From a virus, in the IMG/VR virus record IMGVR_UViG_3300009155_000044, positions 1-64,000 of that record: a DNA stretch of 64,000 nt; one strand, written 5' to 3'. Positions 7,718 to 43,987 of this stretch are shown here, one piece after another (the stretch's first letter is position 1; every line of letters starts with the position of its first letter). The position numbers and the translations under genes were made by a program. The notes beneath the pieces are model-generated. The model did not search any database, was not told where the DNA came from, and saw nothing but the letters and a program-made list of their open reading frames with translations.

Positions 7718-9283
7718 ATGAATATTCAATCTTTAATCAAAAGAGTTCAAGCATCTTTAAATTTAGAAGTGGATGGAATTGCTGGTCCCGCTACTTGGCA
7801 AGCTATTGCTGATAAACTAACTCCCGCTCTCAAAGAATCAGTGAGTGTTTCAGTTGTTAAAACTAATTCCTTGGCTAAAAAACTTGTAGAGCTTGCAAGA
7901 GAAGAAGTGGGAGTTGAAGAAGTTGACGGAACAAATTGTGGTCCAAGAGTTAATGAATATAAATCAGCAACAACTTTAAGTCCAAATGCTAGCTGGCCTT
8001 GGTGTTTTGATGAATCAGTTGATATTTTAACTGAAAATGGCTGGCGCAGTTTAAAAAAAATCGTTTCTTCAAAAGAAAAAATCAAAATAGCTCAAGTAGA
8101 TCAAAGCAATTTAGACATTACTTTTGACTATCCAACTGATTATATTCATAAAACAACAGATAATGCCTCTCAAGTTAAAGCTAGGGGGCTAAATTTTATA
8201 TGCGACAAGAATCATGAATTTTTTGCTTCTAAAAATAAAAGAAATTCTTCTCCAGATTTAATCGCGCTGTCTGAAATTCAATCATTTGTAAGCATCCCAT
8301 CTTGTTTTATAGCTTCAAAATATAATCAAAAGTATTCTGAATTAGATTTGGATTTTATTGCAGCTTTTGTGGCAGACGGATCTTTTCATCAAAGAAGTGA
8401 AAATCATAAACAAAAAATTCGCATACAAGTTAGTAAAGATCGTAAAGTTGAAGTTTTAAAATGTCATAATGGTTCATTTTATGAAGCTAAAAAAGTTTAT
8501 GGAAATAGTAAAAAGCCATTAACAACATTTGAATTTCACATTCCAGAATACTTTGATGAAATTTTCTCTGATTATAAGGAATTTAAATGGGAATGGGTTT
8601 TTTCTTTATGTTCAGAACAAATGAAATTCTTTTTAGAGAGATATTCTTTTTGGGATGGATGTTATGAAAGAAAAAATATTAGTACGTGTCGAGAACAAAA
8701 TCATGATATTTTTGTAGCAATGGGCATTATGGCGGGTATGCATCCAAATAGCTCTCGTAGAACAGTTAAAAGTGGCAAAACATGTTTTGAAATTTCTCTT
8801 GGAAATAAAAAAACTAGAACGCTCCAAGCATCTAATATTCATGAATACAATGAAAAAATTGAATTATATTGCGTAACAATGCCCAAGGGTCTTATTATTG
8901 TTAGAGATAGCAAAGGCACTCCATTTTTAACTGGTAATTGCGCTGCCTTTATTTGTTGGTTATTCAGGGAGACTATGAAAAACTCTAAATATTCTTTTTC
9001 TAGACCAACAACTGCTAGCGCATGGGGTTTTGAAAAGTGGGCTAGAGAAGAAAATGATTCTATCAAACTGCAAAAACCACACAACAATGACATTCAATCT
9101 GGCGACATTGTAATCTTTACTTTTTCGCACATTGGATTAGCAATTTCGGGAGTGGATTCTTCTGGTTATGTTCAAACAATAGAGGGCAATACTGACGGTG
9201 AAGGTAGTCGAGAAGGAGGTGCTGTTTTGCGAAAGAAACGCCACATTTCACAAATTCGCAGTAGAATTCGTACTTTTGAATAA
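7718..9283 (+). CDS. endolysin-like PG-binding + CHAP amidase, interrupted by an intein
   Basis: VDGIAGPATW PG-binding motif; exteins rejoin as WPW|CAAF (CHAP Cys) with SHIG and TIEGNT motifs. Confidence 0.88.
   Translation: MNIQSLIKRVQASLNLEVDGIAGPATWQAIADKLTPALKESVSVSVVKTNSLAKKLVELAREEVGVEEVDGTNCGPRVNEYKSATTLSPNASWPWCFDESVDILTENGWRSLKKIVSSKEKIKIAQVDQSNLDITFDYPTDYIHKTTDNASQVKARGLNFICDKNHEFFASKNKRNSSPDLIALSEIQSFVSIPSCFIASKYNQKYSELDLDFIAAFVADGSFHQRSENHKQKIRIQVSKDRKVEVLKCHNGSFYEAKKVYGNSKKPLTTFEFHIPEYFDEIFSDYKEFKWEWVFSLCSEQMKFFLERYSFWDGCYERKNISTCREQNHDIFVAMGIMAGMHPNSSRRTVKSGKTCFEISLGNKKTRTLQASNIHEYNEKIELYCVTMPKGLIIVRDSKGTPFLTGNCAAFICWLFRETMKNSKYSFSRPTTASAWGFEKWAREENDSIKLQKPHNNDIQSGDIVIFTFSHIGLAISGVDSSGYVQTIEGNTDGEGSREGGAVLRKKRHISQIRSRIRTFE
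8003..8938 (+). mobile_element. intein (312 aa) with degenerate LAGLIDADG endonuclease
   Basis: Starts CFDESVDILTENGW; FIAAFVADG and FLERYSFWDG blocks; ends LYCVT...TGN before Cys+1. Confidence 0.88.
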
Positions 9284-13296: not shown

Positions 13297-13434
13297 TAAA
13301 ATTAAAAAATCATTAATCTTAAATACGATTGAAGAATTTTGAAAAAACGTTGACAAGGAAACTCTTCCATGGTAATGTTCAACATAATAAAAATTGCATC
13401 AACAAAACAAAATACAAACCAACAAAACAAAACA

Positions 13435-14394
13435 ATGATTGAATCCCTTACTCCAGAACAAACTGCCAAAATGCCAGAATACACTAAAAAGTGGCTTGCA
13501 ATTGGCATTAACACTGATCGTCTTGACTACGATGAAACTGTGAGCATCATTCACAAAGTGCAAACTAATTTGCTCAAAACTGAGACTACTCCAGTTATTA
13601 TTGTTAATAATCCAGTAGAAGCTTGGGTTGCTTGTCACTTCCTTAAAGCTGGTGTTGAAGTGAAAGATGTTCCTGCGAAAGTTGAAGAATACTTTGTCAA
13701 AGGACTTAAAATGGAGATTGAGACTTATACCACTCCGTATCTCAACGGATCGTTCGACGCGAACGTTTGGAGCTTCTACGACTTCTTCAAAGATGAAGTA
13801 GGAATTGACTTCAAAGAAGCGAGTGAGAATTATGCTATCTGGCATTCGACTCATAAGCTTGGGCAGATTTATCCAATGCCGACGGCAGTGGTTGTGAGTC
13901 AAAAGCCTACTGTGATTCACCTCAATGAAGACAATGTGACTCACTGTGACGGTGGTCCAGCCATTGCTTACGATGGTTATGGACTAAACAGTATCTTCAT
14001 CCTCAACGGAACGAGAGTTCCTGAGTGGTTGGCAGTTACTCCAAGCAATGAACTCACTCTTGATCAGTACAATACTCTGGACAATGCAGACCACAAAATG
14101 GAGTTTGTTCGTAAATTCGGAGTTGAAAGAATGCTCTCTTTTGGCAAGAAGATTGACTCTTACGAAAACTATCCTGATCAAGAGTGGTGGACTAAGAGTG
14201 AGTATGAACTTTGGGACATGGCCGCTTTGTACTCAGGCATTGATTATGCTCCTCACCTGAAGATGCTTAATCAAACTGTTGGAGTGTGGCATGTCGAAAG
14301 TGTCTCTCCAGAGTGTAAGAATCTTAAACAGGCTATTGCAGAACGACTTGGAGGCATTGACTTATCAGATCATGAAATTGTGGGCATCGCTTAA
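13435..14394 (+). CDS. DUF6745-like phage protein
   Basis: LTPEQ...Y..KWLAIG N-terminus; W.FYDFF, VSQKPT.IH.....HC.GGPAI.Y.G, NG.RVP motifs (family recalled, not searched). Confidence 0.75.
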   Translation: MIESLTPEQTAKMPEYTKKWLAIGINTDRLDYDETVSIIHKVQTNLLKTETTPVIIVNNPVEAWVACHFLKAGVEVKDVPAKVEEYFVKGLKMEIETYTTPYLNGSFDANVWSFYDFFKDEVGIDFKEASENYAIWHSTHKLGQIYPMPTAVVVSQKPTVIHLNEDNVTHCDGGPAIAYDGYGLNSIFILNGTRVPEWLAVTPSNELTLDQYNTLDNADHKMEFVRKFGVERMLSFGKKIDSYENYPDQEWWTKSEYELWDMAALYSGIDYAPHLKMLNQTVGVWHVESVSPECKNLKQAIAERLGGIDLSDHEIVGIA

Positions 14395-14427
14395 TTAAAC
14401 ATCCAACAACAAACAATAAGCAAATAT

Positions 14428-14787
14428 ATGAAAAAGAAAATCACCAATATTAAAAAGAAAATTATTCTTCACGGCGAATGCATTGTGGCTCAGTGCTCTA
14501 GTCTTCCTGATGATGTCATTGCAGAGAGTCATGCAACTTCATCCGTTATCGTGGCTAATAGCGAAGTCACTGGAAATCATCACGTTATTGCTAATAAGCC
14601 TGGAGTTGTTTTTTATAACTCCAAGACTACTGGCAAGCGCTACATGAATAGCTCTGTTCCTACTAATATTAGTTGTGTAATGGCTGAGCGTCACACTACC
14701 ATTGACATTGTGCCTGGCACTTATGTAATTGGCATTCAACAAGAATACGATTACATCGCTCAAGCTAAGCGAAATGTAGCTGATTAA
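14428..14787 (+). CDS. small beta-barrel/cupin-like partner of DUF6745-like proteins
   Basis: HGE, SEVTGNHH, H..I....G.Y.I..QQEY......RNVAD motifs. Confidence 0.75.
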   Translation: MKKKITNIKKKIILHGECIVAQCSSLPDDVIAESHATSSVIVANSEVTGNHHVIANKPGVVFYNSKTTGKRYMNSSVPTNISCVMAERHTTIDIVPGTYVIGIQQEYDYIAQAKRNVAD

Positions 14788-14819
14788 TTAATTTCTAGGG
14801 AATTCTGTAGGGAATTTAA

Positions 14820-14855
14820 AGGCTCTCTGAAATACAACTTCAGAGAGCCTTTTTA
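14820..14855 (+). terminator. intrinsic terminator
   Basis: GGCTCTCTGAA ATACAAC TTCAGAGAGCC followed by TTTTT. Confidence 0.75.
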
Positions 14856-15061
14856 TTATAATAAAATGAATAACAACGATGTGGAAAATCTTTAAATTCT
14901 TCTAATCTTGAAGTTCGGAGGAATGTAGGATTTAAAATATGGATGTTGACAGATTATGCTGTATGGAATAATGACTCTTTTTATAATATGAGTATCATTA
15001 TAAAAAGACCTGTAGCAGATTCTGTAAGAGATCACTTCAAATAAAAATTAATAATAAAGCA

Positions 15062-15241
15062 ATGAACAATTTTAATATTCGTAAAGCTGTATGGGATTCT
15101 GTATGGGATTCTGTAGGATGTTTAGTATGGGATTCTGCATGGGATTCTATATGGAGTTCTGTATATAATTCTGTAGAGAGTTCTGTAGGAAGTTCTGTAC
15201 AAGCTTCTACAAAAGATTACTTTCAAAACGACCTCCGCTGA
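15062..15241 (+). CDS. SVxx-repeat mini-protein 1 (59 aa)
   Basis: Hand translation MNNFNIRKAVWDSV...KDYFQNDLR. Confidence 0.7.
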   Translation: MNNFNIRKAVWDSVWDSVGCLVWDSAWDSIWSSVYNSVESSVGSSVQASTKDYFQNDLR

Positions 15242-15250
15242 AATAAAGCA

Positions 15251-15490
15251 ATGAATGACATTAGCGTCTATAAAGCTGTATGGGATTCTGTAGAGGATTC
15301 TGTAGAGGACTCTGTAAGTAATTCTGTATCGAATTCTGTATGGAATTCTGTATCGAATTCTATAGCAGTTTCTGTAGCGGTTTCTGTAAGGAGTTATGTA
15401 AGGGATCTTGTAGAAGATTCTGTATGGAATTCTGTATTGGATTCTGTAGAGGATTCTACAAAAGATTACTTTCAAAACAAACTCCGCTAA
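15251..15490 (+). CDS. SVxx-repeat mini-protein 2
   Basis: ORF track. Confidence 0.75.
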   Translation: MNDISVYKAVWDSVEDSVEDSVSNSVSNSVWNSVSNSIAVSVAVSVRSYVRDLVEDSVWNSVLDSVEDSTKDYFQNKLR

Positions 15491-15499
15491 AATAAAGCA

Positions 15500-15724
15500 A
15501 TGAACAGTACTATCATTCGTAAAGCTGTATGGAATTCTGTAAAGGATTCTGTAAAGGATTCTGTAGAGGATCCTATATGGGTTTTTGTAGAGGTTTCTGT
15601 ATCGCGTTCTATAAGGATTTCTGTAGAGGCTTCTATATCGCGTTCTGTAGAGGTTTCTGTATCGCGTTCTGTAGAGTTTGATTCTGTAAGGAGTTCTGTA
15701 AGGGATCACTTCGAACAAAAATGA
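15500..15724 (+). CDS. SVxx-repeat mini-protein 3
   Basis: ORF track. Confidence 0.75.
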   Translation: MNSTIIRKAVWNSVKDSVKDSVEDPIWVFVEVSVSRSIRISVEASISRSVEVSVSRSVEFDSVRSSVRDHFEQK

Positions 15725-15930
15725 TTATGAACGACTCCACTATTCGTGAAGCTGCAAGCATAGGTAGTTCTATATGCACTTCTATAGAGAATGACGCATG
15801 GCATTCTATAATTAATGCTGTAGACGATTCTATATGGGAGCTTGTAATGAATTCTCTATTAGATTCTGGATGGGAGTCTATAAGGGATTTTGTAGGAAGT
15901 TCTGTAGGGGAATACTTCGAACAAAAATAA
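15721..15930 (+). CDS. SVxx-repeat mini-protein 4 (diverged)
   Basis: ORF track. Confidence 0.75.
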   Translation: MIMNDSTIREAASIGSSICTSIENDAWHSIINAVDDSIWELVMNSLLDSGWESIRDFVGSSVGEYFEQK

Positions 15931-15932
15931 TT

Positions 15933-16124
15933 ATGAATAAAATTAATGATTCTGTAGAGGGATCTGCAAGGGATTCTGTAAGGAGTTATGTAAGGAGGTC
16001 TGTAGAGGTTTCTGTATGGGATTCTGTAGCGAGTTCTGTAGCGAGTTCTGTAGCGAGTTCTGCATGGAGTTCTGTAGGGGATTCTGTAGATGATTCTGCA
16101 AGAGATTACTTCGAACAAAAATAA
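15933..16124 (+). CDS. SVxx-repeat mini-protein 5
   Basis: TAATTATG start; the track extends it spuriously upstream. Confidence 0.75.
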   Translation: MNKINDSVEGSARDSVRSYVRRSVEVSVWDSVASSVASSVASSAWSSVGDSVDDSARDYFEQK

Positions 16125-16130
16125 ATAATT

Positions 16131-16346
16131 ATGAATAAAATTAATAAATCTGTATGGAATTCTGTAGGGGATTCTGTAGGTAATTCTGTATGGAATTCTG
16201 TAAGTAATTCTGTATGGAATTCTGTAGGGGATTCTGTATGGCATTCTTTAATGAGTTCTGTAAGGAGTTCTGTAGGGGATTTTGTATTGGCTTCTATAAG
16301 AACTTCTATAGCAGATTCTGCAAGAGATTATTTTGAACAAAATTAA
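16131..16346 (+). CDS. SVxx-repeat mini-protein 6
   Basis: ORF track. Confidence 0.75.
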   Translation: MNKINKSVWNSVGDSVGNSVWNSVSNSVWNSVGDSVWHSLMSSVRSSVGDFVLASIRTSIADSARDYFEQN

Positions 16347-16584
16347 TATCAATAAAATTAATGACAATATGTGGAATTTAATGTGGAATTCTCCTAGAAC
16401 TTCTATAATAGAGTTTGTCGCGAATCCTATATATAATATTATATCACATTCTGTCGAGGATGATCTACGTTATTCTATAAGGATTTCTGTAGGGGATTCT
16501 GTAAGAGATTCTACAAGAGATTCTATAGGAGATTCTATAGAAGATTCTGTAAGAGATTATTTCAAACAAAATAATTATGAATAA
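16333..16584 (+). CDS. SVxx-repeat mini-protein 7 (diverged; start uncertain)
   Basis: ORF track. Confidence 0.6.
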   Translation: MNKININKINDNMWNLMWNSPRTSIIEFVANPIYNIISHSVEDDLRYSIRISVGDSVRDSTRDSIGDSIEDSVRDYFKQNNYE

Positions 16585-16864
16585 AATTAATGATTCTGTA
16601 GAGGGATCTGTAAGGAGTTCTGTAAGGGATTCTGTATGGAGTTCTGTATGGAATTCTGTAAATCATTCTGTATGGAGTTCTGTAGTGAGTTCTGTAGGTA
16701 ATTCTGTATGGAATTCTGTATATAATTCTGTAGGGAGTTCTGTAGTGAGTTCTGTTCGCGTAAGTCGTTCAAAATCAATGAGTTACGCAGTAGGGAGTTC
16801 TGTAGATGATTCTGTAGAGGATTTTGTCGTAGGTTTTGTAATCGATTACTTCGAACAAAAATAA
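16577..16864 (+). CDS. SVxx-repeat mini-protein 8
   Basis: ORF track. Confidence 0.75.
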   Translation: MNKINDSVEGSVRSSVRDSVWSSVWNSVNHSVWSSVVSSVGNSVWNSVYNSVGSSVVSSVRVSRSKSMSYAVGSSVDDSVEDFVVGFVIDYFEQK

Positions 16865-16870
16865 ATAATT

Positions 16871-17059
16871 ATGAATAAAATTAATGATTCTGTAGAGGGA
16901 TCTGTAAGGAGTTCTGTAAGGGATTCTGTAGGGAGTTCTGTATGGGTTTCTGTATGGGTTTCTGTAGCGAGTTCTGTATGGCATTCTGTAAAGGGTTCTG
17001 TAAGGAGTTCTGTCGGAGATTCTGCAAGAGATTATTTCGATTATTTCAAACAAAAATAA
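16871..17059 (+). CDS. SVxx-repeat mini-protein 9
   Basis: ORF track. Confidence 0.75.
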   Translation: MNKINDSVEGSVRSSVRDSVGSSVWVSVWVSVASSVWHSVKGSVRSSVGDSARDYFDYFKQK

Positions 17060-17061
17060 TT

Positions 17062-17238
17062 ATGAATGATGAAATTAATTATACTGAGATATTTAATATT
17101 AGAAGCTTTATAGGTTCTTTTATAAGCAATTCTGTAGAAATATCTGTATGGAGCGATATATGGGATACTATAGTGCATCCTATGAAAGATTCTGTACGGC
17201 GTTCTATACGCGATTTTGTAGATGATTACTTCGAATAA
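17062..17238 (+). CDS. SVxx-repeat mini-protein 10 (diverged)
   Basis: TAATTATG start, ends DDYFE. Confidence 0.7.
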   Translation: MNDEINYTEIFNIRSFIGSFISNSVEISVWSDIWDTIVHPMKDSVRRSIRDFVDDYFE

Positions 17239-17312
17239 AATCAACGATTAACTATTCAGCAAAATTCCCCGAAAACCTCTTGACTTCCATATCGATTGAA
17301 GTATGCTCAATC

Positions 17313-17807
17313 ATGCTCAAAATTCAAACTATTAAAATGCCTCAATTATCTTGCGAATTAGAAGAATTTCTTTCTGCAACAGATCAAGACTTGAATCTCG
17401 CCCAAGAAGTTTCTAATTGGACGCTTAAGAGGAGTGAAGGAATTTATTCTGACGGGGAATTTGCTTATTATTCAGTAATTATGGAAATTCCCATCAGAGG
17501 CATTATAGATCGCACTATGCATAAACCAGTTTGGATTCGATCTACTGTGAAGATGCATTCTGGTGGACGTTGGGAACCTGATGAGTATGATGAAGTTTTA
17601 GTAGATGCAGGCCAAGTTTTTTTATCTTTAGCGGATGCTGTGAAACAATCAAAACTAGATAACTATGAGAAAGAACTGATGGAAATAAACAACTCTTGCT
17701 CAATTTGTGATGGTTCTGGAATGGAAGATTATTTTGCAGAAATTTCTTGCAAAGCTTGTTTGGGCGCAGGTCATCATTTTTTCATTAAACCGCAAAAAAA
17801 TAAATAA
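17313..17807 (+). CDS. hypothetical protein with C-terminal CxxC...CxxC Zn-finger, inserted in the array
   Basis: CSICDGSG...CKACLGAG; own promoter TTGACT-N16-TATGCT at 17280-17307. Confidence 0.7.
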   Translation: MLKIQTIKMPQLSCELEEFLSATDQDLNLAQEVSNWTLKRSEGIYSDGEFAYYSVIMEIPIRGIIDRTMHKPVWIRSTVKMHSGGRWEPDEYDEVLVDAGQVFLSLADAVKQSKLDNYEKELMEINNSCSICDGSGMEDYFAEISCKACLGAGHHFFIKPQKNK

Positions 17808-17812
17808 CTTAT

Positions 17813-17884
17813 ATGAGATAATTAAAATTTAAAGTATATATTCCTGATTATGAGAAATCAAAAGATTACTTCCAACAAAAATAA
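17813..17884 (+). pseudogene. chimeric relic: YopX 5' end (CAA->TAA at codon 3) fused to a mini-ORF tail KDYFQQK
   Basis: ATGAGATAATTAAAATTTAAAGTATATATTCCTGAT matches 21499 ATGAGACAATTAAAATTTAGGGTATATATTCCTGAT. Confidence 0.75.
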
Positions 17885-17886
17885 TT

Positions 17887-18114
17887 ATGAATAAAATTGA
17901 AAATTCTACAAGGTATTCTGTAAGGGCTTCTGTAAGGGCTTCTGTAAGGGTTTCTGTAAGCAATTATGTAAGGGATTCTGCAAGGGATTCTGTAAGGGAT
18001 TCTGTATGGGATTCTGTGTGGGTTTCTGTGGGGGTTTCTGTGGGGGTTTCTGTGGGGAGTTCTGTATGGAATTCGGTAGGGGATTACTTTTCAAAACGAA
18101 CTCCACTAAAATAA
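17887..18114 (+). CDS. SVxx-repeat mini-protein 11
   Basis: ORF track. Confidence 0.75.
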   Translation: MNKIENSTRYSVRASVRASVRVSVSNYVRDSARDSVRDSVWDSVWVSVGVSVGVSVGSSVWNSVGDYFSKRTPLK

Positions 18115-18118
18115 AGGA

Positions 18119-18352
18119 ATGAACAACTTTAACATTCGTAATTCTGTAAGGAATTCTGTATGGGATTCTGTAGCGGGTTCCATATGGGATTCTGTAGGGG
18201 ATTCTGTATGGGATTCTACAAGGAGTTTTGTAAGTTATGCTGTATGGGATTCTGTAAGGGATTCTGTAAGGGATTCTGTATGGAATTCTGTAGAGGATCC
18301 TGTGTGGGATTCTGTGTGGAGTTCTGTAGAGAATTATTTCCAACAAAAATAA
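18119..18352 (+). CDS. SVxx-repeat mini-protein 12
   Basis: ORF track. Confidence 0.75.
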   Translation: MNNFNIRNSVRNSVWDSVAGSIWDSVGDSVWDSTRSFVSYAVWDSVRDSVRDSVWNSVEDPVWDSVWSSVENYFQQK

Positions 18353-18354
18353 TT

Positions 18355-18522
18355 ATGAATAAAATTAACGTTGCTGTAAGGAATTCTGTATGGAGTTCTG
18401 TATGGAGTTCTGTAGGGTTTTCTGTAAGGTGGTCTGTAGGGGATTCTGTAGGGGATTCTGTAGGGAGTTCTGTAAGGGATTCTGTATTGATTTCTGTAGA
18501 GAATTATTTCCAACAAAAATAA
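18355..18522 (+). CDS. SVxx-repeat mini-protein 13
   Basis: TAATTATG start. Confidence 0.75.
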   Translation: MNKINVAVRNSVWSSVWSSVGFSVRWSVGDSVGDSVGSSVRDSVLISVENYFQQK

Positions 18523-18524
18523 TT

Positions 18525-18752
18525 ATGAATAAAATTGAAAATTCTGTAAGGGATTCTGTAAGGGATTCTGTATGGAGTTCTGTAAGGTGGTCTGTAGGGG
18601 ATTCTGTAGGGGATTCTGTAGCGAGTTCTGTGGGGCGTTCTGTAAGAGATTCTGTATGGTGGTCTGTAATGAATCCTGTAGCAGATTCTGTAGGGAGTTC
18701 TGTAAGCGATTCTGTATGGAGTTCTGTAGAGAATTATTTCAAACAAAAATAA
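18525..18752 (+). CDS. SVxx-repeat mini-protein 14
   Basis: TAATTATG start. Confidence 0.75.
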   Translation: MNKIENSVRDSVRDSVWSSVRWSVGDSVGDSVASSVGRSVRDSVWWSVMNPVADSVGSSVSDSVWSSVENYFKQK

Positions 18753-18754
18753 TT

Positions 18755-18952
18755 ATGAATAAAATTAACGTTGCTGTAAGGAATTCTGTATGGGATTCTG
18801 TAGCGAGTTCTGTAAGGGTTTCTGTAAGGTGGTCTGTATGGAATTCTGTAGGGGATTCTGTAGGGAGTTCTGTATGGGATTCTGTAGGGCGTTTTGTAAG
18901 TGATTCTATCAAAGATTCTGTTAAAGATTACTTCAATAAAATAAAACAATGA
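18755..18952 (+). CDS. SVxx-repeat mini-protein 15
   Basis: TAATTATG start. Confidence 0.75.
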   Translation: MNKINVAVRNSVWDSVASSVRVSVRWSVWNSVGDSVGSSVWDSVGRFVSDSIKDSVKDYFNKIKQ

Positions 18953-19095
18953 CCTATTTTAACATTCGTAAAGCTGTAGTGAATTCTGTAGGGAGTTCTG
19001 TAGGGAGTTCTGTAGGAGACATTTCAGAACAAAAAGTAGACGTTTGGCTTCTTCGTTACTTTCGCCAATTAATAATTAATAATAATGAAAACTGA
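18949..19095 (+). CDS. SVxx-repeat mini-protein 16 (short, altered C-terminus)
   Basis: Hand translation MTYFNIRKAVVNSVGSSVGSSVGDISEQK... Confidence 0.5.
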   Translation: MTYFNIRKAVVNSVGSSVGSSVGDISEQKVDVWLLRYFRQLIINNNEN

Positions 19096-19366
19096 CACAC
19101 TAAATATTAGATATAATAGAATAAGAAAAGAGTGGTGCGTAAGCTATAAAAGATCTGATATTGAGCGCATTGATCATGTACCTAGACCATGTCACATGGG
19201 ATTCTATCACTTCCATCGAAAAATTGGACCAAAAAAAGCTTTTGCTGAACTCAAAAAGTTTTTGATAGACGAAACAAATAAAGAAATTTTATCGCTTCAA
19301 GAATATATAAATGAAATGAATGCTCTACAATTGCCCGATTGGATTACTAATAAAAAAAAGAACTGA
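19085..19366 (+). CDS. hypothetical protein inserted in the array
   Basis: ORF track; followed by a headless repeat remnant at 19364-19445. Confidence 0.65.
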   Translation: MKTDTLNIRYNRIRKEWCVSYKRSDIERIDHVPRPCHMGFYHFHRKIGPKKAFAELKKFLIDETNKEILSLQEYINEMNALQLPDWITNKKKN

Positions 19367-19441
19367 TTCTGTAGTGAGTTCTGTAGTGAGTTCTGTAGAG
19401 CGTTCTGTAGAGGATTCTGTAAAAGATTACTTTCAAATAAA

Positions 19442-19687
19442 ATGAACTTGAATAAAATTAGCAATACTGTAAGGGCTTCTGTAGTGAATTCTGTATGTGA
19501 TTCTGTAGGGAGTTCTGCATGGAATTCTGTAAATCATTCTGTATGGAGTTCTGTAGTGAGTTCTGTAGGGGATTCTGTATGGCATTCTGTATGGCATTCT
19601 GTATGGCATTCTGTATGGCATTCTGTAGGGGATTCTATATTGCGCTCTGTAGAGGATTCTGTAAAAGATTACTTTCAAATAAAATGA
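19442..19687 (+). CDS. SVxx-repeat mini-protein 17
   Basis: ORF track. Confidence 0.75.
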   Translation: MNLNKISNTVRASVVNSVCDSVGSSAWNSVNHSVWSSVVSSVGDSVWHSVWHSVWHSVWHSVGDSILRSVEDSVKDYFQIK

Positions 19688-19965
19688 ACTTGAATAAAAT
19701 TAACGATGCTGTAAGTAATTCTGTATGGAATTCTGTATGGAATTCTGTAAGTAATTCTGTATGGAATTCTGTATGGAATTCTGTAAGGGGTTCTGTATGG
19801 GGTTCTGTAGGACGTTCTATAAAGAGTTCTGTAAGAGTTGATGTAGGACGTTCTATAAAGAGTTCTGTAAGAGTTGATGTAGGACGTTTTATAAAGAGTT
19901 CTGTAAGAGTTGATGTAAGGGATTCTGTAGAGAGTTCTGTAAAAGATTGCTTTCAAATAAAATGA
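19684..19965 (+). CDS. SVxx-repeat mini-protein 18
   Basis: ATGA overlap start MNLNKINDAV. Confidence 0.75.
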   Translation: MNLNKINDAVSNSVWNSVWNSVSNSVWNSVWNSVRGSVWGSVGRSIKSSVRVDVGRSIKSSVRVDVGRFIKSSVRVDVRDSVESSVKDCFQIK

Positions 19966-20300
19966 ACTTGAATAAAATTAGCAATACTATAAGGGTTTCT
20001 GTAGATGATTCTGCATGGGCTTCTGTAGCGAGTTCTGTGGGGCGTTCTGTAAGAGATTCTGTATGGTGGTCTGTAATGAATCCTGTAAATGATTCTGTAA
20101 GTAATTCTGTAAGTAATTTTGTATGGAATTCTGTATATAATTCTATAGCAGTTTCTGTAGGGCGTTCTGTAGGGGATTCTGTAGGGGATTCTGTATGGCA
20201 TTCTGTAGGGGATTCTATATTGCGCTCTGTAGGGGATTCTGTATGGGATTTTGTACAGGCTTCTGTAAGGGATTATTTTAAACAAAATGATTATGAATAA
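19962..20300 (+). CDS. SVxx-repeat mini-protein 19
   Basis: ATGA overlap start MNLNKISNTI. Confidence 0.75.
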   Translation: MNLNKISNTIRVSVDDSAWASVASSVGRSVRDSVWWSVMNPVNDSVSNSVSNFVWNSVYNSIAVSVGRSVGDSVGDSVWHSVGDSILRSVGDSVWDFVQASVRDYFKQNDYE

Positions 20301-20496
20301 AATTAACGATGCTGTAAGTAATTCTGTAAGGAATTCTGTAAGGAATTCTGTATGGAGTTTTGTATGGAGTTCTGTAAGGGATTCTGTAAGGTGGTCTGTA
20401 TGGAATTCTGTAGGGGATTCTGTAGCAGATTCTGTATGGGATTCTGTAGGGAGTTCTGTAGGGGATTCTGCAAGAGATTATTTCAAACAAAAATAA
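20293..20496 (+). CDS. SVxx-repeat mini-protein 20
   Basis: ORF track. Confidence 0.75.
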   Translation: MNKINDAVSNSVRNSVRNSVWSFVWSSVRDSVRWSVWNSVGDSVADSVWDSVGSSVGDSARDYFKQK

Positions 20497-20498
20497 TT

Positions 20499-20738
20499 AT
20501 GAATAAAATTAACGATTCTGTAAGGGATTCTGTAAGGTGGTCTGTATGGAATTCTGTAGGGGATTCTGTAGCAGATTCTGTATGGGATTCTGTAGCGAGT
20601 TCTGTAGAGGATTCTGTAGAGGATTCTGTATGGAATTCTGTATGGAATTCTGTATTGAGTTCTGTATGGGATTCTGTAAGGAATTCTGTAGGGGATTCTG
20701 TAAGAGATTCTGCAAGAGATTATTTCAAACAAAAATAA
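20499..20738 (+). CDS. SVxx-repeat mini-protein 21
   Basis: TAATTATG start. Confidence 0.75.
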   Translation: MNKINDSVRDSVRWSVWNSVGDSVADSVWDSVASSVEDSVEDSVWNSVWNSVLSSVWDSVRNSVGDSVRDSARDYFKQK

Positions 20739-20740
20739 TT

Positions 20741-20932
20741 ATGAATAAAATTAACGATGCTATAAGGAAGTCTATATTGAGTTCTGTATGGAATTCTGTA
20801 GGGAATTCTATAGGGAATTCTGTAGGGAGTTCTGTAAGGAGTTTTGTAAGGGATTCTGTAGAGGATTCTGTATTGGCTTCTATAAGAACTTCTATAGCAG
20901 ATTCTGTAAGAGATTATTTCAAACAAAAATAA
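20741..20932 (+). CDS. SVxx-repeat mini-protein 22
   Basis: TAATTATG start. Confidence 0.75.
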   Translation: MNKINDAIRKSILSSVWNSVGNSIGNSVGSSVRSFVRDSVEDSVLASIRTSIADSVRDYFKQK

Positions 20933-20934
20933 TT

Positions 20935-21177
20935 ATGAATAAAATTAATGATTCTGTAGAGGGATCTGTAAGGAGTTTTGTAAGGAGTTCTGTAGGGAGT
21001 TCTGTAGGGAGTTCTGCATGGGATTCTGTATGGATTTCTGTAGCGAGTTCTGTATGGGTTTCTGTAAGGGTTTCTGTAGGGGATTCTGTATTGGATTCTG
21101 TATGGGATTCTGTAGGGAGTTCTGTATGGCATTCTGTAAGGAATTCTGTAAGGGATTACTTCGCAAATGAACTCTAA
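20935..21177 (+). CDS. SVxx-repeat mini-protein 23
   Basis: TAATTATG start. Confidence 0.75.
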   Translation: MNKINDSVEGSVRSFVRSSVGSSVGSSAWDSVWISVASSVWVSVRVSVGDSVLDSVWDSVGSSVWHSVRNSVRDYFANEL

Positions 21178-21189
21178 TAAAATAAAGCA

Positions 21190-21273
21190 ATGAATAACTC
21201 TGATATTCGTAATTCTGTAAGGAATTCTGTAAGGGGTTCTGTATGGGATTCTGTAAAAAATTACTTCGAATAA
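21190..21273 (+). CDS. SVxx-repeat mini-protein 24 (27 aa)
   Basis: Hand translation MNNSDIRNSVRNSVRGSVWDSVKNYFE. Confidence 0.55.
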   Translation: MNNSDIRNSVRNSVRGSVWDSVKNYFE

Positions 21274-42028: not shown

Positions 42029-43077
42029 CTCTACTCCCAGAACAAGAAGCTGCTATTCAAGAGATTGTTAAATCAACAACTGATTTAAATGAAATTGTAC
42101 GCCTTGTGTTTAACAACTCTAGCCTCGACGGCAGAAGCAGAGAGGGCCGATTAGTTAGATCTTATCTTATTAGCAGCAAAGTTAAATTCAAAACAACAAA
42201 AAGAGAGAAAGTAGATCCTTTAGACTTTTCTCCAGAGCAAAGAAAATTCATCATTGCAAATGCTAATGCTGGACTATCATCTTTAGCCATTGCTCGCTTG
42301 ATATTTCCACTACAAGATGTGGGAGCGCTCTCAATTGAGCAGAGATCAGTCTTAGATGTGATTAGAGAAGAGAATCCAGACTTTACCCCAAGCTCTGATG
42401 TGGACACTCCCTTGGGCAATTATATTGCGCCAAAATCACCAGGAAGAATTGTAAAAAAAATCAATGATGCAACTGGCAGTTCATTAGAAGATGAAAAACT
42501 CAATCGACAGCATAAAATCTGCATAGATCGTTTGGGAATTAATTTAAATAATTCTCGCTTTTTAACAATTGTTAATAATTACACTTCAAAAGAAGATAGA
42601 GTCTTATTTGAAGAAGAATTTGTTCGTTTAACATGGGACAAGCCAGATTTAACATCTGATGAGTTGAACTTGTACATGAATGTGTGCAAAGAAATTATTA
42701 GTTTAGAAATTGTTAGCAAACATTTAAACAAACTAAACGATGCTTTTGATGTTGCTAGCGATAATGATGAAATGACGGTTCGATTAGCAGAAATCATCAA
42801 AGCAAAAAGCTCAGAATATCATCAGTGTGAGAGTCGCATTGAAAACTTAACAAAAAAACTACAAGGAGATCGATCTGAGCGAATGAAGAGCCGCCATAAA
42901 GAGAATTCTTCTATATTATCACTAGTTCAATTTTTTCAAGATGAGGAAGAGAGAGTCAACATGGTTCGCATTGCGGAAATGCAGCGGCAACTAGTAAAAG
43001 ATGAGGCTGAAAAGATTGAAGGAATGGCTGACTGGAAAGCTAGAGTTTTAGGAATTTCAATTGAAGATGTGCTTTAA
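42025..43077 (+). CDS. conserved hypothetical protein upstream of terminase (possible packaging partner)
   Basis: Long ORF, coiled-coil C-terminus; position only. Confidence 0.7.
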   Translation: MTLLPEQEAAIQEIVKSTTDLNEIVRLVFNNSSLDGRSREGRLVRSYLISSKVKFKTTKREKVDPLDFSPEQRKFIIANANAGLSSLAIARLIFPLQDVGALSIEQRSVLDVIREENPDFTPSSDVDTPLGNYIAPKSPGRIVKKINDATGSSLEDEKLNRQHKICIDRLGINLNNSRFLTIVNNYTSKEDRVLFEEEFVRLTWDKPDLTSDELNLYMNVCKEIISLEIVSKHLNKLNDAFDVASDNDEMTVRLAEIIKAKSSEYHQCESRIENLTKKLQGDRSERMKSRHKENSSILSLVQFFQDEEERVNMVRIAEMQRQLVKDEAEKIEGMADWKARVLGISIEDVL

Positions 43078-43987
43078 ATGCCAAGAATGCAATTCAGAGT
43101 TTGATGCTTTAAAAAGCTTGCACGCTCACGTTAAAAAGCACAACATGCTTTTGGGAGATTATTACGTCAAGCACTATAGGCGCAGAAACAAATTAACTGA
43201 CGAACTTATTCCTTTTAAAAATTATAGTGAATATTTTGAAAAAGATTTTTCTAATTACGAGCAATTATTAAAGTGGTGTGAAATTTCTCCCGAAAAAGAA
43301 GTGTCCGATTATATATTGCTTCTTTTAAAAAATAGAATAGATAAAAAACAATTAAAATATGGACCCAGTACTATTGAATTGTATTCTGCCAATCTCCCAC
43401 CTATTAGTTTATACAAAAAACATTTCGGAAGCTATTCTGCTGCATGTGAAAAATGCGGCGTTAAACCTATGTTCGCGAGTTCAATTGCACGTAGTTTTCA
43501 TAATGATTTCTCAAGCGTCAAAATTTTTATAGACACTAGAGAACAGAAACCACTAGAGTTTAAAAATTCTGAAAAGTTAAAATTAGACGCTGGAGACTAT
43601 GCTGTTTCTGGAAGCGACTATAAATATTGCTATGTTGACCGAAAATCTATTGAAGACTTGGCTGGAACCTTATCTTCTGGAAATGCTCGCTTTAGAAAAG
43701 AACTTGAGCGTTGCAGAAGTGCGGGATGCTTTTTATTTATTGTAATTGAAGAAGATTTATATAAATTAGAGAGCTTAACCATCTTTAAACGCAGGCAAAT
43801 AAATTTACAATTTATTTTACACGCTCTTAGAGATGTTCAGCAAGAGTATGGCGACTGCTGTCAGTTCATTTTTAGTGGCAGCAGAAAACGCAGTGAATTT
43901 TTAATTCCTAAACTGTTAGTTTTAGGGGATGTTATGAAAAATGTTGATGTGCAATATTATTTGAACATTGGACTATTAGATTATTAA
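43061..43987 (+). CDS. C2H2 Zn-finger + ERCC4-domain nuclease
   Basis: C..C...F....SL..H.K.H; IDTREQKPL...GDY...VDRKS..DL. Confidence 0.85.
   Translation: MKMCFKCQECNSEFDALKSLHAHVKKHNMLLGDYYVKHYRRRNKLTDELIPFKNYSEYFEKDFSNYEQLLKWCEISPEKEVSDYILLLLKNRIDKKQLKYGPSTIELYSANLPPISLYKKHFGSYSAACEKCGVKPMFASSIARSFHNDFSSVKIFIDTREQKPLEFKNSEKLKLDAGDYAVSGSDYKYCYVDRKSIEDLAGTLSSGNARFRKELERCRSAGCFLFIVIEEDLYKLESLTIFKRRQINLQFILHALRDVQQEYGDCCQFIFSGSRKRSEFLIPKLLVLGDVMKNVDVQYYLNIGLLDY

Follow-up and report, generated by a model that had tools for sequence, protein, structure and literature searches.

The window analysed here, positions 1 to 64,000 of the viral record IMGVR_UViG_3300009155_000044, belongs to the 120-kb genome of an uncultured phage. 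Sequence analysis of the region identified a two-gene unit, formed by a DUF6745-family protein and a conserved partner, followed by a terminator-like hairpin and by 25 tandem mini-genes (27-112 aa) located between 15062 and 21273, all on the + strand (Table 1).

Each mini-gene has the form of an M-N-K-I-N-type cap, (x-S-V-x)n repeats and a [RKE][DN]YF[KEQ]QK ending, and successive units are joined as TAA-TT-ATG. As a degenerate copy precedes the first mini-gene, the array starts 156-275 bp after the partner gene. A sigma-70 promoter scan was not above shuffles. Two unrelated genes lie inside the array: one is lodged between mini-genes, and has a homolog in the array of a relative (L010), and the other interrupts a mini-gene, leaving its two parts on either side.

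Table 1. Features identified in the mini-gene array region (window coordinates)
Position	Strand	Feature	Size and remarks
13432-14394	+	DUF6745-family core protein without repeat tract	320 aa; an upstream ATG at 13369 is also open
14428-14787	+	Conserved partner (HGE...SEVTGNHH)	119 aa
14818-14852	+	Terminator-like hairpin between the two-gene unit and the array	14-bp stem, T-rich tail
14943-15044	+	Degenerate mini-gene	ends ...ADSVRDHFK
15062-17238	+	Mini-genes 1-10, x-S-V-x repeats with N- and C-caps	58-95 aa
17280-17807	+	Unrelated gene lodged inside the array	175 aa; CxxCxGxG zinc-finger-like end
17861-17884	+	Orphan C-cap remnant (KDYFQQK, stop), directly before the next mini-gene	no repeat body
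17887-18952	+	Mini-genes 11-15	55-77 aa
18949-19095	+	Broken mini-gene, N-terminal part	cap plus three repeats, then unrelated tail
19085-19366	+	Unrelated gene that interrupts a mini-gene	93 aa
19320-19445	+	Broken mini-gene, C-terminal part	repeats plus KDYFQIK cap
19442-21177	+	Mini-genes 18-24	63-112 aa
21190-21273	+	Last, short mini-gene	27 aa

The start of the core protein (MIESLT...) was assigned by homolog alignment. Its match to the Pfam model PF20530 was borderline: 26.8 bits against a cut-off of 27 by hmmscan, and 27.4 bits, over the cut-off, in a six-frame search of the genome. Family membership was supported by a match to phrog_31813 (E=8.5e-8), by 219 homologs of about 320 aa, most of the close ones carrying a precomputed PF20530 hit, and by full-length homology to family members, including the N-terminal part and the FYDF helix, in an alignment with 42 invariant columns. 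Linked relatives scored 29.7-47.9 bits. The partner matched phrog_27831 (E=3.7e-4) but no Pfam or NCBIfam family; tblastn located it next to DUF6745 in most loci.

An AF2 model of the core protein had a pLDDT of 89.8. No fold could be assigned using Foldseek or VIA-align (best E = 0.43 and Z = 4.0), and a profile search of PDB sequences, an NCBIfam search and a search of the ESM Atlas leaving out PF20530 gave no usable match.

Internal tracts of DUF6745 proteins and distribution of the arrays

No repeat was found in the core protein between NNPVEAW and GSFDANVWSFYDFF. The preliminary description, which had proposed that many phage homologs carry SV- or QV-type tracts at this position, was correct on this point: 48 of 150 distant DUF6745 representatives (50% identity) carry a period-4 tract of the QV, SV, KV or NL type at exactly that site, between the NPxEAW helix and PYxxGSF, starting at residue 59-96. 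None of the 120 closest homologs does. A search for longer fused forms of 561-2000 aa gave none that scored; the fused forms, of 300-700 aa, were obtained by an exhaustive phmmer search, which gave 2864 hits (representative clusters at 50% identity) at E<=0.001 and 158 at E<=1e-30.

The preliminary description also noted that the YDFFKD motif of the core protein echoes the RDYFKQ ending of the mini-genes. The echo is real as letters, although it is probably not the homologous site. A better counterpart of the mini-gene C-cap is the conserved tract exit of the fused homologs (QV-[KRG]-D-[FY]-[VI]-x-PY, with V-[KR]-D-[FY]-[VI] matching the cap), a remnant of which is kept in the window protein as KVEEYF.

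In order to test whether tracts and arrays are associated, 66 non-redundant phage loci were compared. Arrays were found near 21 of 31 tract-less genes and near 0 of 33 tract-bearing genes (Fisher p = 1e-9, not corrected for phylogeny). The conserved partner occurs in both kinds of loci. The repeat types of the arrays (SV, NV, QV, EV/KV) span those seen in internal tracts.

Ten of the 31 tract-less loci showed no array within 10 kb. A search of three of their whole records (14-77% complete) gave one doubtful match (E = 0.008, with two stop codons inside) and otherwise none, using a profile built from SV-type copies only. Conversely, a 48-kb contig with at least 5 mini-genes has no DUF6745, although it is only 23% complete.

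In the phylogenetic tree, which is rooted at the midpoint, the tract-bearing forms are deep and paraphyletic and the tract-less clade has 99% support. A second, independent tract-less lineage (locus L205), which has a QV array, is sister to the tract-bearing locus L184 with 96% support.

A scan of viral contigs for the DNA pattern (TCTGT-N7)x5 retrieved mostly microsatellites and was not usable as a test of independence. It did yield three fused SV-type DUF6745 proteins (L055, L085 and L107), one array (L056) and another tract-bearing family (L065/L118).

DUF6745 is widespread in uncultured phages but almost absent from cultured ones (1 of 50,697 GenBank phage records). A tblastn search of the same number of phage records with the window protein itself gave no match. 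The single example is gp38 of Mycobacterium phage prophiGD102-1 (MW584211), which matches PF20530 at 101 bits. No member of the family has a known function or a solved structure, and no mention of DUF6745, or of the arrangement described here, was found in the literature searched.

Repeat DNA and comparison with other variable phage repeats

Tandem Repeats Finder detected period-12 arrays throughout. The pattern TCTGTA-N6-TCTGTA-N6-TCTGTA occurs 119 times on the + strand of the 120-kb genome, 0 times on the - strand and 0 times for the reversed control; the 100 listed places all lie between 15158 and 20606.

The analysis of 180 repeat units showed that the repeat DNA is homogenised as TCTGTA-NNG-NNT. 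Positions 1-5 are invariant and position 6 is nearly so (173 of 180), position 9 is G in 161 units and position 12 is T in 168, while positions 7, 8, 10 and 11 are variable. Ser is encoded by TCT in 243 of 245 codons, against 34% in background genes, and Val by GTA in 233 of 245, against 20%. Homogenisation is seen within each genome, and the fixed hexamer differs between phages by synonymous changes. In the closest relatives the flanks are 79-89% identical but the arrays are not collinear. Fixed synonymous sites with variable replacement sites across 25 separate genes are of interest as a case of concerted evolution combined with diversifying selection.

The same nucleotide signature, with invariant third codon positions and variable first and second positions, has been described for gp54 of mycobacteriophage Tweety (with Che8 gp57 and PMC gp51), in which unique N- and C-terminal parts flank 15-48 tetrapeptide repeats (PMC2884959). 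Two repeat residues are fixed and two vary in both cases (W/G/Q and S/Y in gp54; W/G/R/E and D/S/N here). In gp54 the repeat number differs between relatives, the gene is non-essential, and genetics showed that changes in repeat number tune escape from the Phrann gp29/gp30 defence (PMC9262239). No sequence relationship was found: gp54 has no Pfam hit, and hhalign gave a probability of 0.1 against the DUF6745 profile. The gp54 repeat is A-A-x-x, not polar-V-x-x, and is part of a single fused gene with no mini-gene array.

The VR2 repeat region of bbp36 in Bordetella phage BMP-1, as cited in PMC2884959, is also a variable-number in-frame repeat inside a non-essential phage gene, with a 24-bp unit in another protein and no free-standing copies. 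Diversity-generating retroelements likewise focus variation on first and second codon positions of a phage protein region. However, a PF00078 search of the 120-kb record found no reverse transcriptase, while the control genomes did match, there is no template/variable repeat pair, and variation is not restricted to adenine-derived positions. The diversity-generating retroelement reading was thus rejected.

Predicted complex and interpretation of the locus

In the AF2 model of a fused homolog (P0131) the tract forms two long helices, 84-119 and 122-160, suggesting a helical hairpin. A complex model of the core with a mini-protein gave an ipSAE of 0.85 (runs 0.87, 0.85 and 0.83) against a best control of 0.01, with a partner pLDDT of at least 77. 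This mark was reached by 58 of 80 solved complexes and by 2 of 110 mismatched pairs, although the calibration holds only roughly with our own alignments. Contacts include core residues 60-72 and 96-105, which flank the insertion site, and the mini-protein C-cap (residues 68-77) touches core residues 61-65 and 99. The three runs do not share contacts (agreement of at least 0%), so the register or pose is not fixed.

We favour, with moderate confidence, the interpretation that the locus is a split form of a phage DUF6745 protein. In many phages DUF6745 is one polypeptide, with an N-terminal helical part, an internal tetrapeptide-repeat tract of very variable length (polar residue, V/L/I, x, x) and a C-terminal domain. 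In the lineage of this phage the tract has been lost from the core gene, leaving only its exit motif, and lives on as about 25 tandem free-standing mini-genes, kept uniform at the DNA level by recombination or slippage and diversified at the two variable residues of each repeat.

We infer that the mini-genes are translated and that each mini-protein binds the core in trans beside the old insertion site, so that one core, with its partner, could carry many alternative repeat surfaces. The most likely use may be the binding of variable host or competitor targets early in infection, for example in counter-defence; this is inferred by analogy with Tweety gp54, the only functional precedent for such tracts. 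If the analogy holds, these arrays are a large unexplored reservoir of anti-defence specificity. The preliminary description, which had inferred that the repeat domain was excised and amplified as interchangeable in-trans modules of a constant scaffold, is supported by these results, although excision rather than capture rests on the midpoint root, action in trans on a complex model whose three runs share no contacts, and the scaffold-and-cassette function remains an inference.

A more far-reaching possibility, which we regard as tentative, is that the phage expresses the mini-genes as a library of about 25 exchangeable helical modules that clip onto the core, giving a combinatorial set of binding surfaces that neutralises variable host defence proteins. 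This would be a protein-level way of generating recognition diversity, without DNA rearrangement or a diversity-generating retroelement.

Alternatively, the mini-proteins could descend from the DUF6745 tract but now act on their own, for example as small helical binders of host proteins, their nearness to DUF6745 reflecting only where they were born. This is less likely but possible: there are tract-less genes without arrays and an array on a contig without DUF6745, a terminator-like hairpin separates the core unit from the array, and period-4 tracts also occur in unrelated phage proteins (L065, L118, Tweety gp54), so the repeat could act without DUF6745. The strictly complementary distribution, the second independent tract-less lineage with an array and the complex model, which passed its controls, argue against it.

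The direction could also be the reverse, with fused proteins arising by capture of a mini-gene into the core. The tree is only midpoint-rooted and some tract-bearing members (loci L159/L160, L185 and L036) sit inside the mainly tract-less clade. This seems unlikely, since tract-bearing forms are far more diverse, occupy all deep branches and include the Mycobacterium prophage protein, and the tract-less protein keeps a vestigial exit motif.

It is very unlikely that the array is only a DNA-level feature, such as a non-translated 12-bp satellite or a set of recombination junctions. Several frames on both strands are open across the array, synonymous positions are nearly invariant, which is unusual for coding sequence, no Shine-Dalgarno motif precedes the starts, and cap junctions flank the unrelated inserted genes. 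However, every unit has an ATG, conserved N- and C-caps and a stop in the one frame that matches the coding frame of the fused homologs, variation is restricted to the first and second codon positions of that frame, and the same architecture recurs with different repeat codons in many phages.

Finally, many small genes with conserved ends beside two conserved proteins, one with invariant H, C, D and E residues and the other with a His-rich motif, could suggest RiPP-like precursors served by one enzyme, but this is the least likely reading, as neither protein matched an enzyme family or fold and in most phages the tract is an internal part of the DUF6745 polypeptide itself, which does not fit a substrate.

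Organization of the DUF6745 locus and the mini-gene array

The features identified in the window are listed in the table; the phage record to which it belongs is 120,073 bp long and was estimated to be 93% complete. The 320-aa product of the first gene of the locus matched Pfam DUF6745 at the threshold only: 26.8 bits by hmmscan and 27.4 bits in the six-frame genome search, against a cut-off of 27. It also matched phrog_31813. An upstream ATG at 13369 is also open, but the alignment with homologs starts at MIESLT. The 119-aa protein encoded next carries the HGE...SEVTGNHH motifs and has no Pfam or NCBIfam family.

Features of the window described in the text
Position	Strand	Feature	Size
1980-2891; 25268-26179; 43061-43987		UvdE UV-endonuclease (E=2.9e-37), RuvB-like AAA protein and ERCC4-domain nuclease	
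7718-9283		ORF beginning like a peptidoglycan-binding or lysin protein	521 aa
10655-12077		GIY-YIG-type homing-endonuclease-like ORF overlapping the start of a ThyX-type thymidylate synthase	
13432-14394	+	DUF6745-family protein	320 aa
14428-14787		Partner protein	119 aa
14818-14852		Terminator-like hairpin	14-bp stem
14943-15044		Degenerate mini-gene copy	
15062-21273	+	Array of 25 mini-ORFs	27-112 aa
17280-17807		Unrelated gene, CxxCxGxG end	175 aa
17861-17884		Orphan C-cap (KDYFQQK-stop)	
18949-19095		N-part of split mini-gene	
19085-19366		Unrelated gene	93 aa
19320-19445		C-part of split mini-gene	
20499-20735		First row of the mini-protein alignment used for the complex model	

Each mini-ORF consists of an MNKIN-type N-cap, a run of x-S-V-x units and a [RKE][DN]YF[KEQ]QK C-cap, and neighbours are typically joined as TAA-TT-ATG. 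The array is far beyond chance: Tandem Repeats Finder reported period-12 arrays throughout, and the pattern TCTGTA-N6-TCTGTA-N6-TCTGTA was found 119 times on the + strand of the genome, 0 times on the - strand and 0 times for the reversed control. These results confirm the array and the adjacent two-gene unit noted in the preliminary description.

Two unrelated genes interrupt the array: the first is followed by an orphan C-cap and the second splits a mini-gene into two parts. The conserved cap junction (...GATTAYTTCMAACAAAAATAATTATG...) may act as a recombination site through which other genes enter the array. A homolog of the 175-aa gene lies in the array of the relative L010.

Elsewhere in the window, inspection by eye suggested that the 521-aa ORF holds an intein-like insert, running from about CFDESVDIL to ...LTGN followed by C. 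The homing-endonuclease-like ORF (GIYKIKC...YIGSS) and the thymidylate synthase (RHRSFAFQEFSQRY motif) were likewise recognized by eye only. The UvdE, RuvB-like and ERCC4-domain proteins make up an unusual set of repair genes for a phage.

Internal tracts of DUF6745 homologs and their distribution relative to arrays

The preliminary description had proposed that many phage homologs carry SV- or QV-type repeats at the position where the window protein has none. The 120 best hits of a word-indexed search were all 283-354 aa long and had no tract. An exhaustive phmmer search, however, found 2864 representative clusters at E<=0.001, and of the 150 best, 48 carry a period-4 tract that begins at residue 59-96, in the same place, between the NPxEAW helix and PYxxGSF...FYDF. 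The tracts are mostly of the QVxx type, with SV, KV, NV, NL, NI, AV, EV and others, and their lengths run from 24 to about 290 residues.

The tract ends in a conserved exit, V-[KRG]-D-[FY]-[VI]-x-PY, which is matched by the mini-gene C-cap (SV-R-D-Y-F). The window protein keeps KVEEYF at the corresponding place. This is a better counterpart of the C-cap than the YDFFKD motif named in the preliminary description, which lies one helix further on and is present in fused proteins as well.

In order to compare the distribution of tracts and arrays, phage loci with up to 10 kb of flank were collected from two scans of IMG/VR and three look-ups, scored for an internal tract and for free-standing period-4 mini-ORFs on the same strand, and collapsed at 90% identity into 66 clusters. 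Among the tract-less clusters, 21 had at least two mini-ORFs and 10 did not; among the tract-bearing clusters, 0 had mini-ORFs and 33 did not (Fisher p = 1e-9, not corrected for relatedness). Two N-terminally truncated cases were set aside. As counter-evidence, for these ten tract-less clusters no array was found within the flanks examined; three of their whole records gave one doubtful match (E = 0.008, with two stops inside) and otherwise none, although these records are 14-77% complete and the search profile was SV-specific. In addition, one 48-kb contig with at least five mini-genes has no DUF6745, but it is only 23% complete. The types of array repeat differ between phages: SV in the window and in loci L001, L019 and L033; NV in L003 and L020; QV in L029, L164 and L205; EV/KV in L183. 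They span the types seen in internal tracts.

A quick maximum-likelihood tree of the proteins with tracts removed placed tract-bearing forms on all deep branches and most tract-less forms in one clade (99% SH-aLRT). At least four changes of the tract state are forced by well-supported branches. The tract-less L205, which has about six QV-type mini-genes 3-5 kb downstream, is sister to the tract-bearing L184 (96%), giving a second, independent pairing of tract loss with an array.

The interpretation made in the preliminary description, that the repeat domain was excised and amplified as free-standing modules acting in trans, was to be refuted if homologs lacked internal tracts or if arrays occurred independently of tract-less DUF6745 genes, and it passed both tests. 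That the mini-genes are detached, amplified copies of the DUF6745 tract is well supported.

Predicted structures and modelled complex

AlphaFold2 on the window protein with 23 homologs gave a confident model (pLDDT 89.8, pTM 0.75). No convincing match for this model was found in the PDB, the best being E = 0.43 by Foldseek and Z = 4.0 over 36 residues by VIA-align, and no fold was assigned. A fused homolog, P0131, was modelled with the same two domains; its tract forms two long helices, 84-119 and 122-160, at low to moderate confidence (block pLDDT 41-78). The Atlas model of the partner protein aligned by structure with part of a 366-aa DUF6745 cluster (TM 0.68 by query over 99 residues). The partner may resemble a beta-rich piece of DUF6745 itself, or fused forms may exist.

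The complex was modelled, as suggested in the preliminary description, from the core alignment plus the mini-protein alignment. The ipSAE was 0.85 (runs 0.87, 0.85 and 0.83), a mark reached by 58 of 80 solved complexes and 2 of 110 mismatched pairs, against a best control of 0.01; partner pLDDT was at least 77. The runs agree in at least 0% of their contacts, so pose or register is not reproducible, which is to be expected for a repeat but weakens the result. The named contacts include core residues 60-72 and 96-105, the two flanks of the insertion site, and the mini-protein C-cap (residues 68-77) lies against core residues 61-65 and 99. The model supports binding but does not show it, and action of the mini-proteins on the core in trans is plausible on the basis of this model only.

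Variation of the repeat units and comparison with other repeat proteins

In 180 complete units the 12-nt repeat reads TCT GTA NNG NNT. Positions 1-5 are invariant, position 6 is A in 173 units, position 9 is G in 161 units and position 12 is T in 168, whereas positions 7, 8, 10 and 11 are highly variable and give W/G/R/E/A at the third residue and D/S/N at the fourth. Ser is TCT in 243 of 245 SV units, against 34% in long genes of the window, and Val is GTA in 233 of 245, against 20%. Gly, Arg, Glu, Ala and Val at the third residue use G-ending codons in a 33% G+C genome and therefore look like one-step derivatives of a common unit.

Other phages fix other synonymous hexamers: TCTGTT, TCTGTC, AATGTC, CAAGTG and CAAGTA. 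Synonymous change thus does happen between phages but is swept through all units and all gene copies within a genome, which is concerted evolution, while replacement variation at two residues is retained. In the closest relatives, with DUF6745 proteins 92-94% identical, the flanks are 79-89% identical in DNA, but the arrays have different copy numbers and no collinear alignment. No reverse transcriptase is present in the genome, excluding a DGR.

No mention of DUF6745 was found in the literature searched. The codon signature measured here is, however, the same as that described for mycobacteriophage Tweety gp54, in which 48 A-A-x-x tetrapeptide repeats lie between unique N- and C-terminal parts and third codon positions are invariant, with variation at first and second positions (Pham et al. 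2007, PMC2884959). Defence-escape mutants of Tweety gain or lose repeats in gene 54 and thereby overcome the Phrann gp29/gp30 system (PMC9262239). A role of the mini-proteins in variable target binding, such as counter-defence, is a guess by analogy with this protein: gp54 is not a DUF6745 protein, has no Pfam family and gave an hhalign probability of 0.1 against the DUF6745 profile. It is therefore a functional analogy and not a relative.

DUF6745 is abundant in metagenomic phages, but only 1 of 50,697 GenBank phage records matched. The cultured-phage collection is almost blind to this family. The only cultured-phage member found was prophiGD102-1 gp38 of a Mycobacterium abscessus prophage, which carries an x-Q-L-x tract and matches PF20530 at 101 bits.

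A second, unrelated phage protein family, found in phage sequences L065 (6144-6836, - strand) and L118 (10621-11481, + strand), also carries an internal x-S-V-x tract, which lies between an N-terminal domain and a C-terminal LWxxGLVPSxDGKIWRLH domain. These proteins have no Pfam family and their genomes, one of which is a complete 42.6-kb genome with terminal repeats, have no DUF6745. The tetrapeptide tract therefore looks like a module used by several phage protein families.
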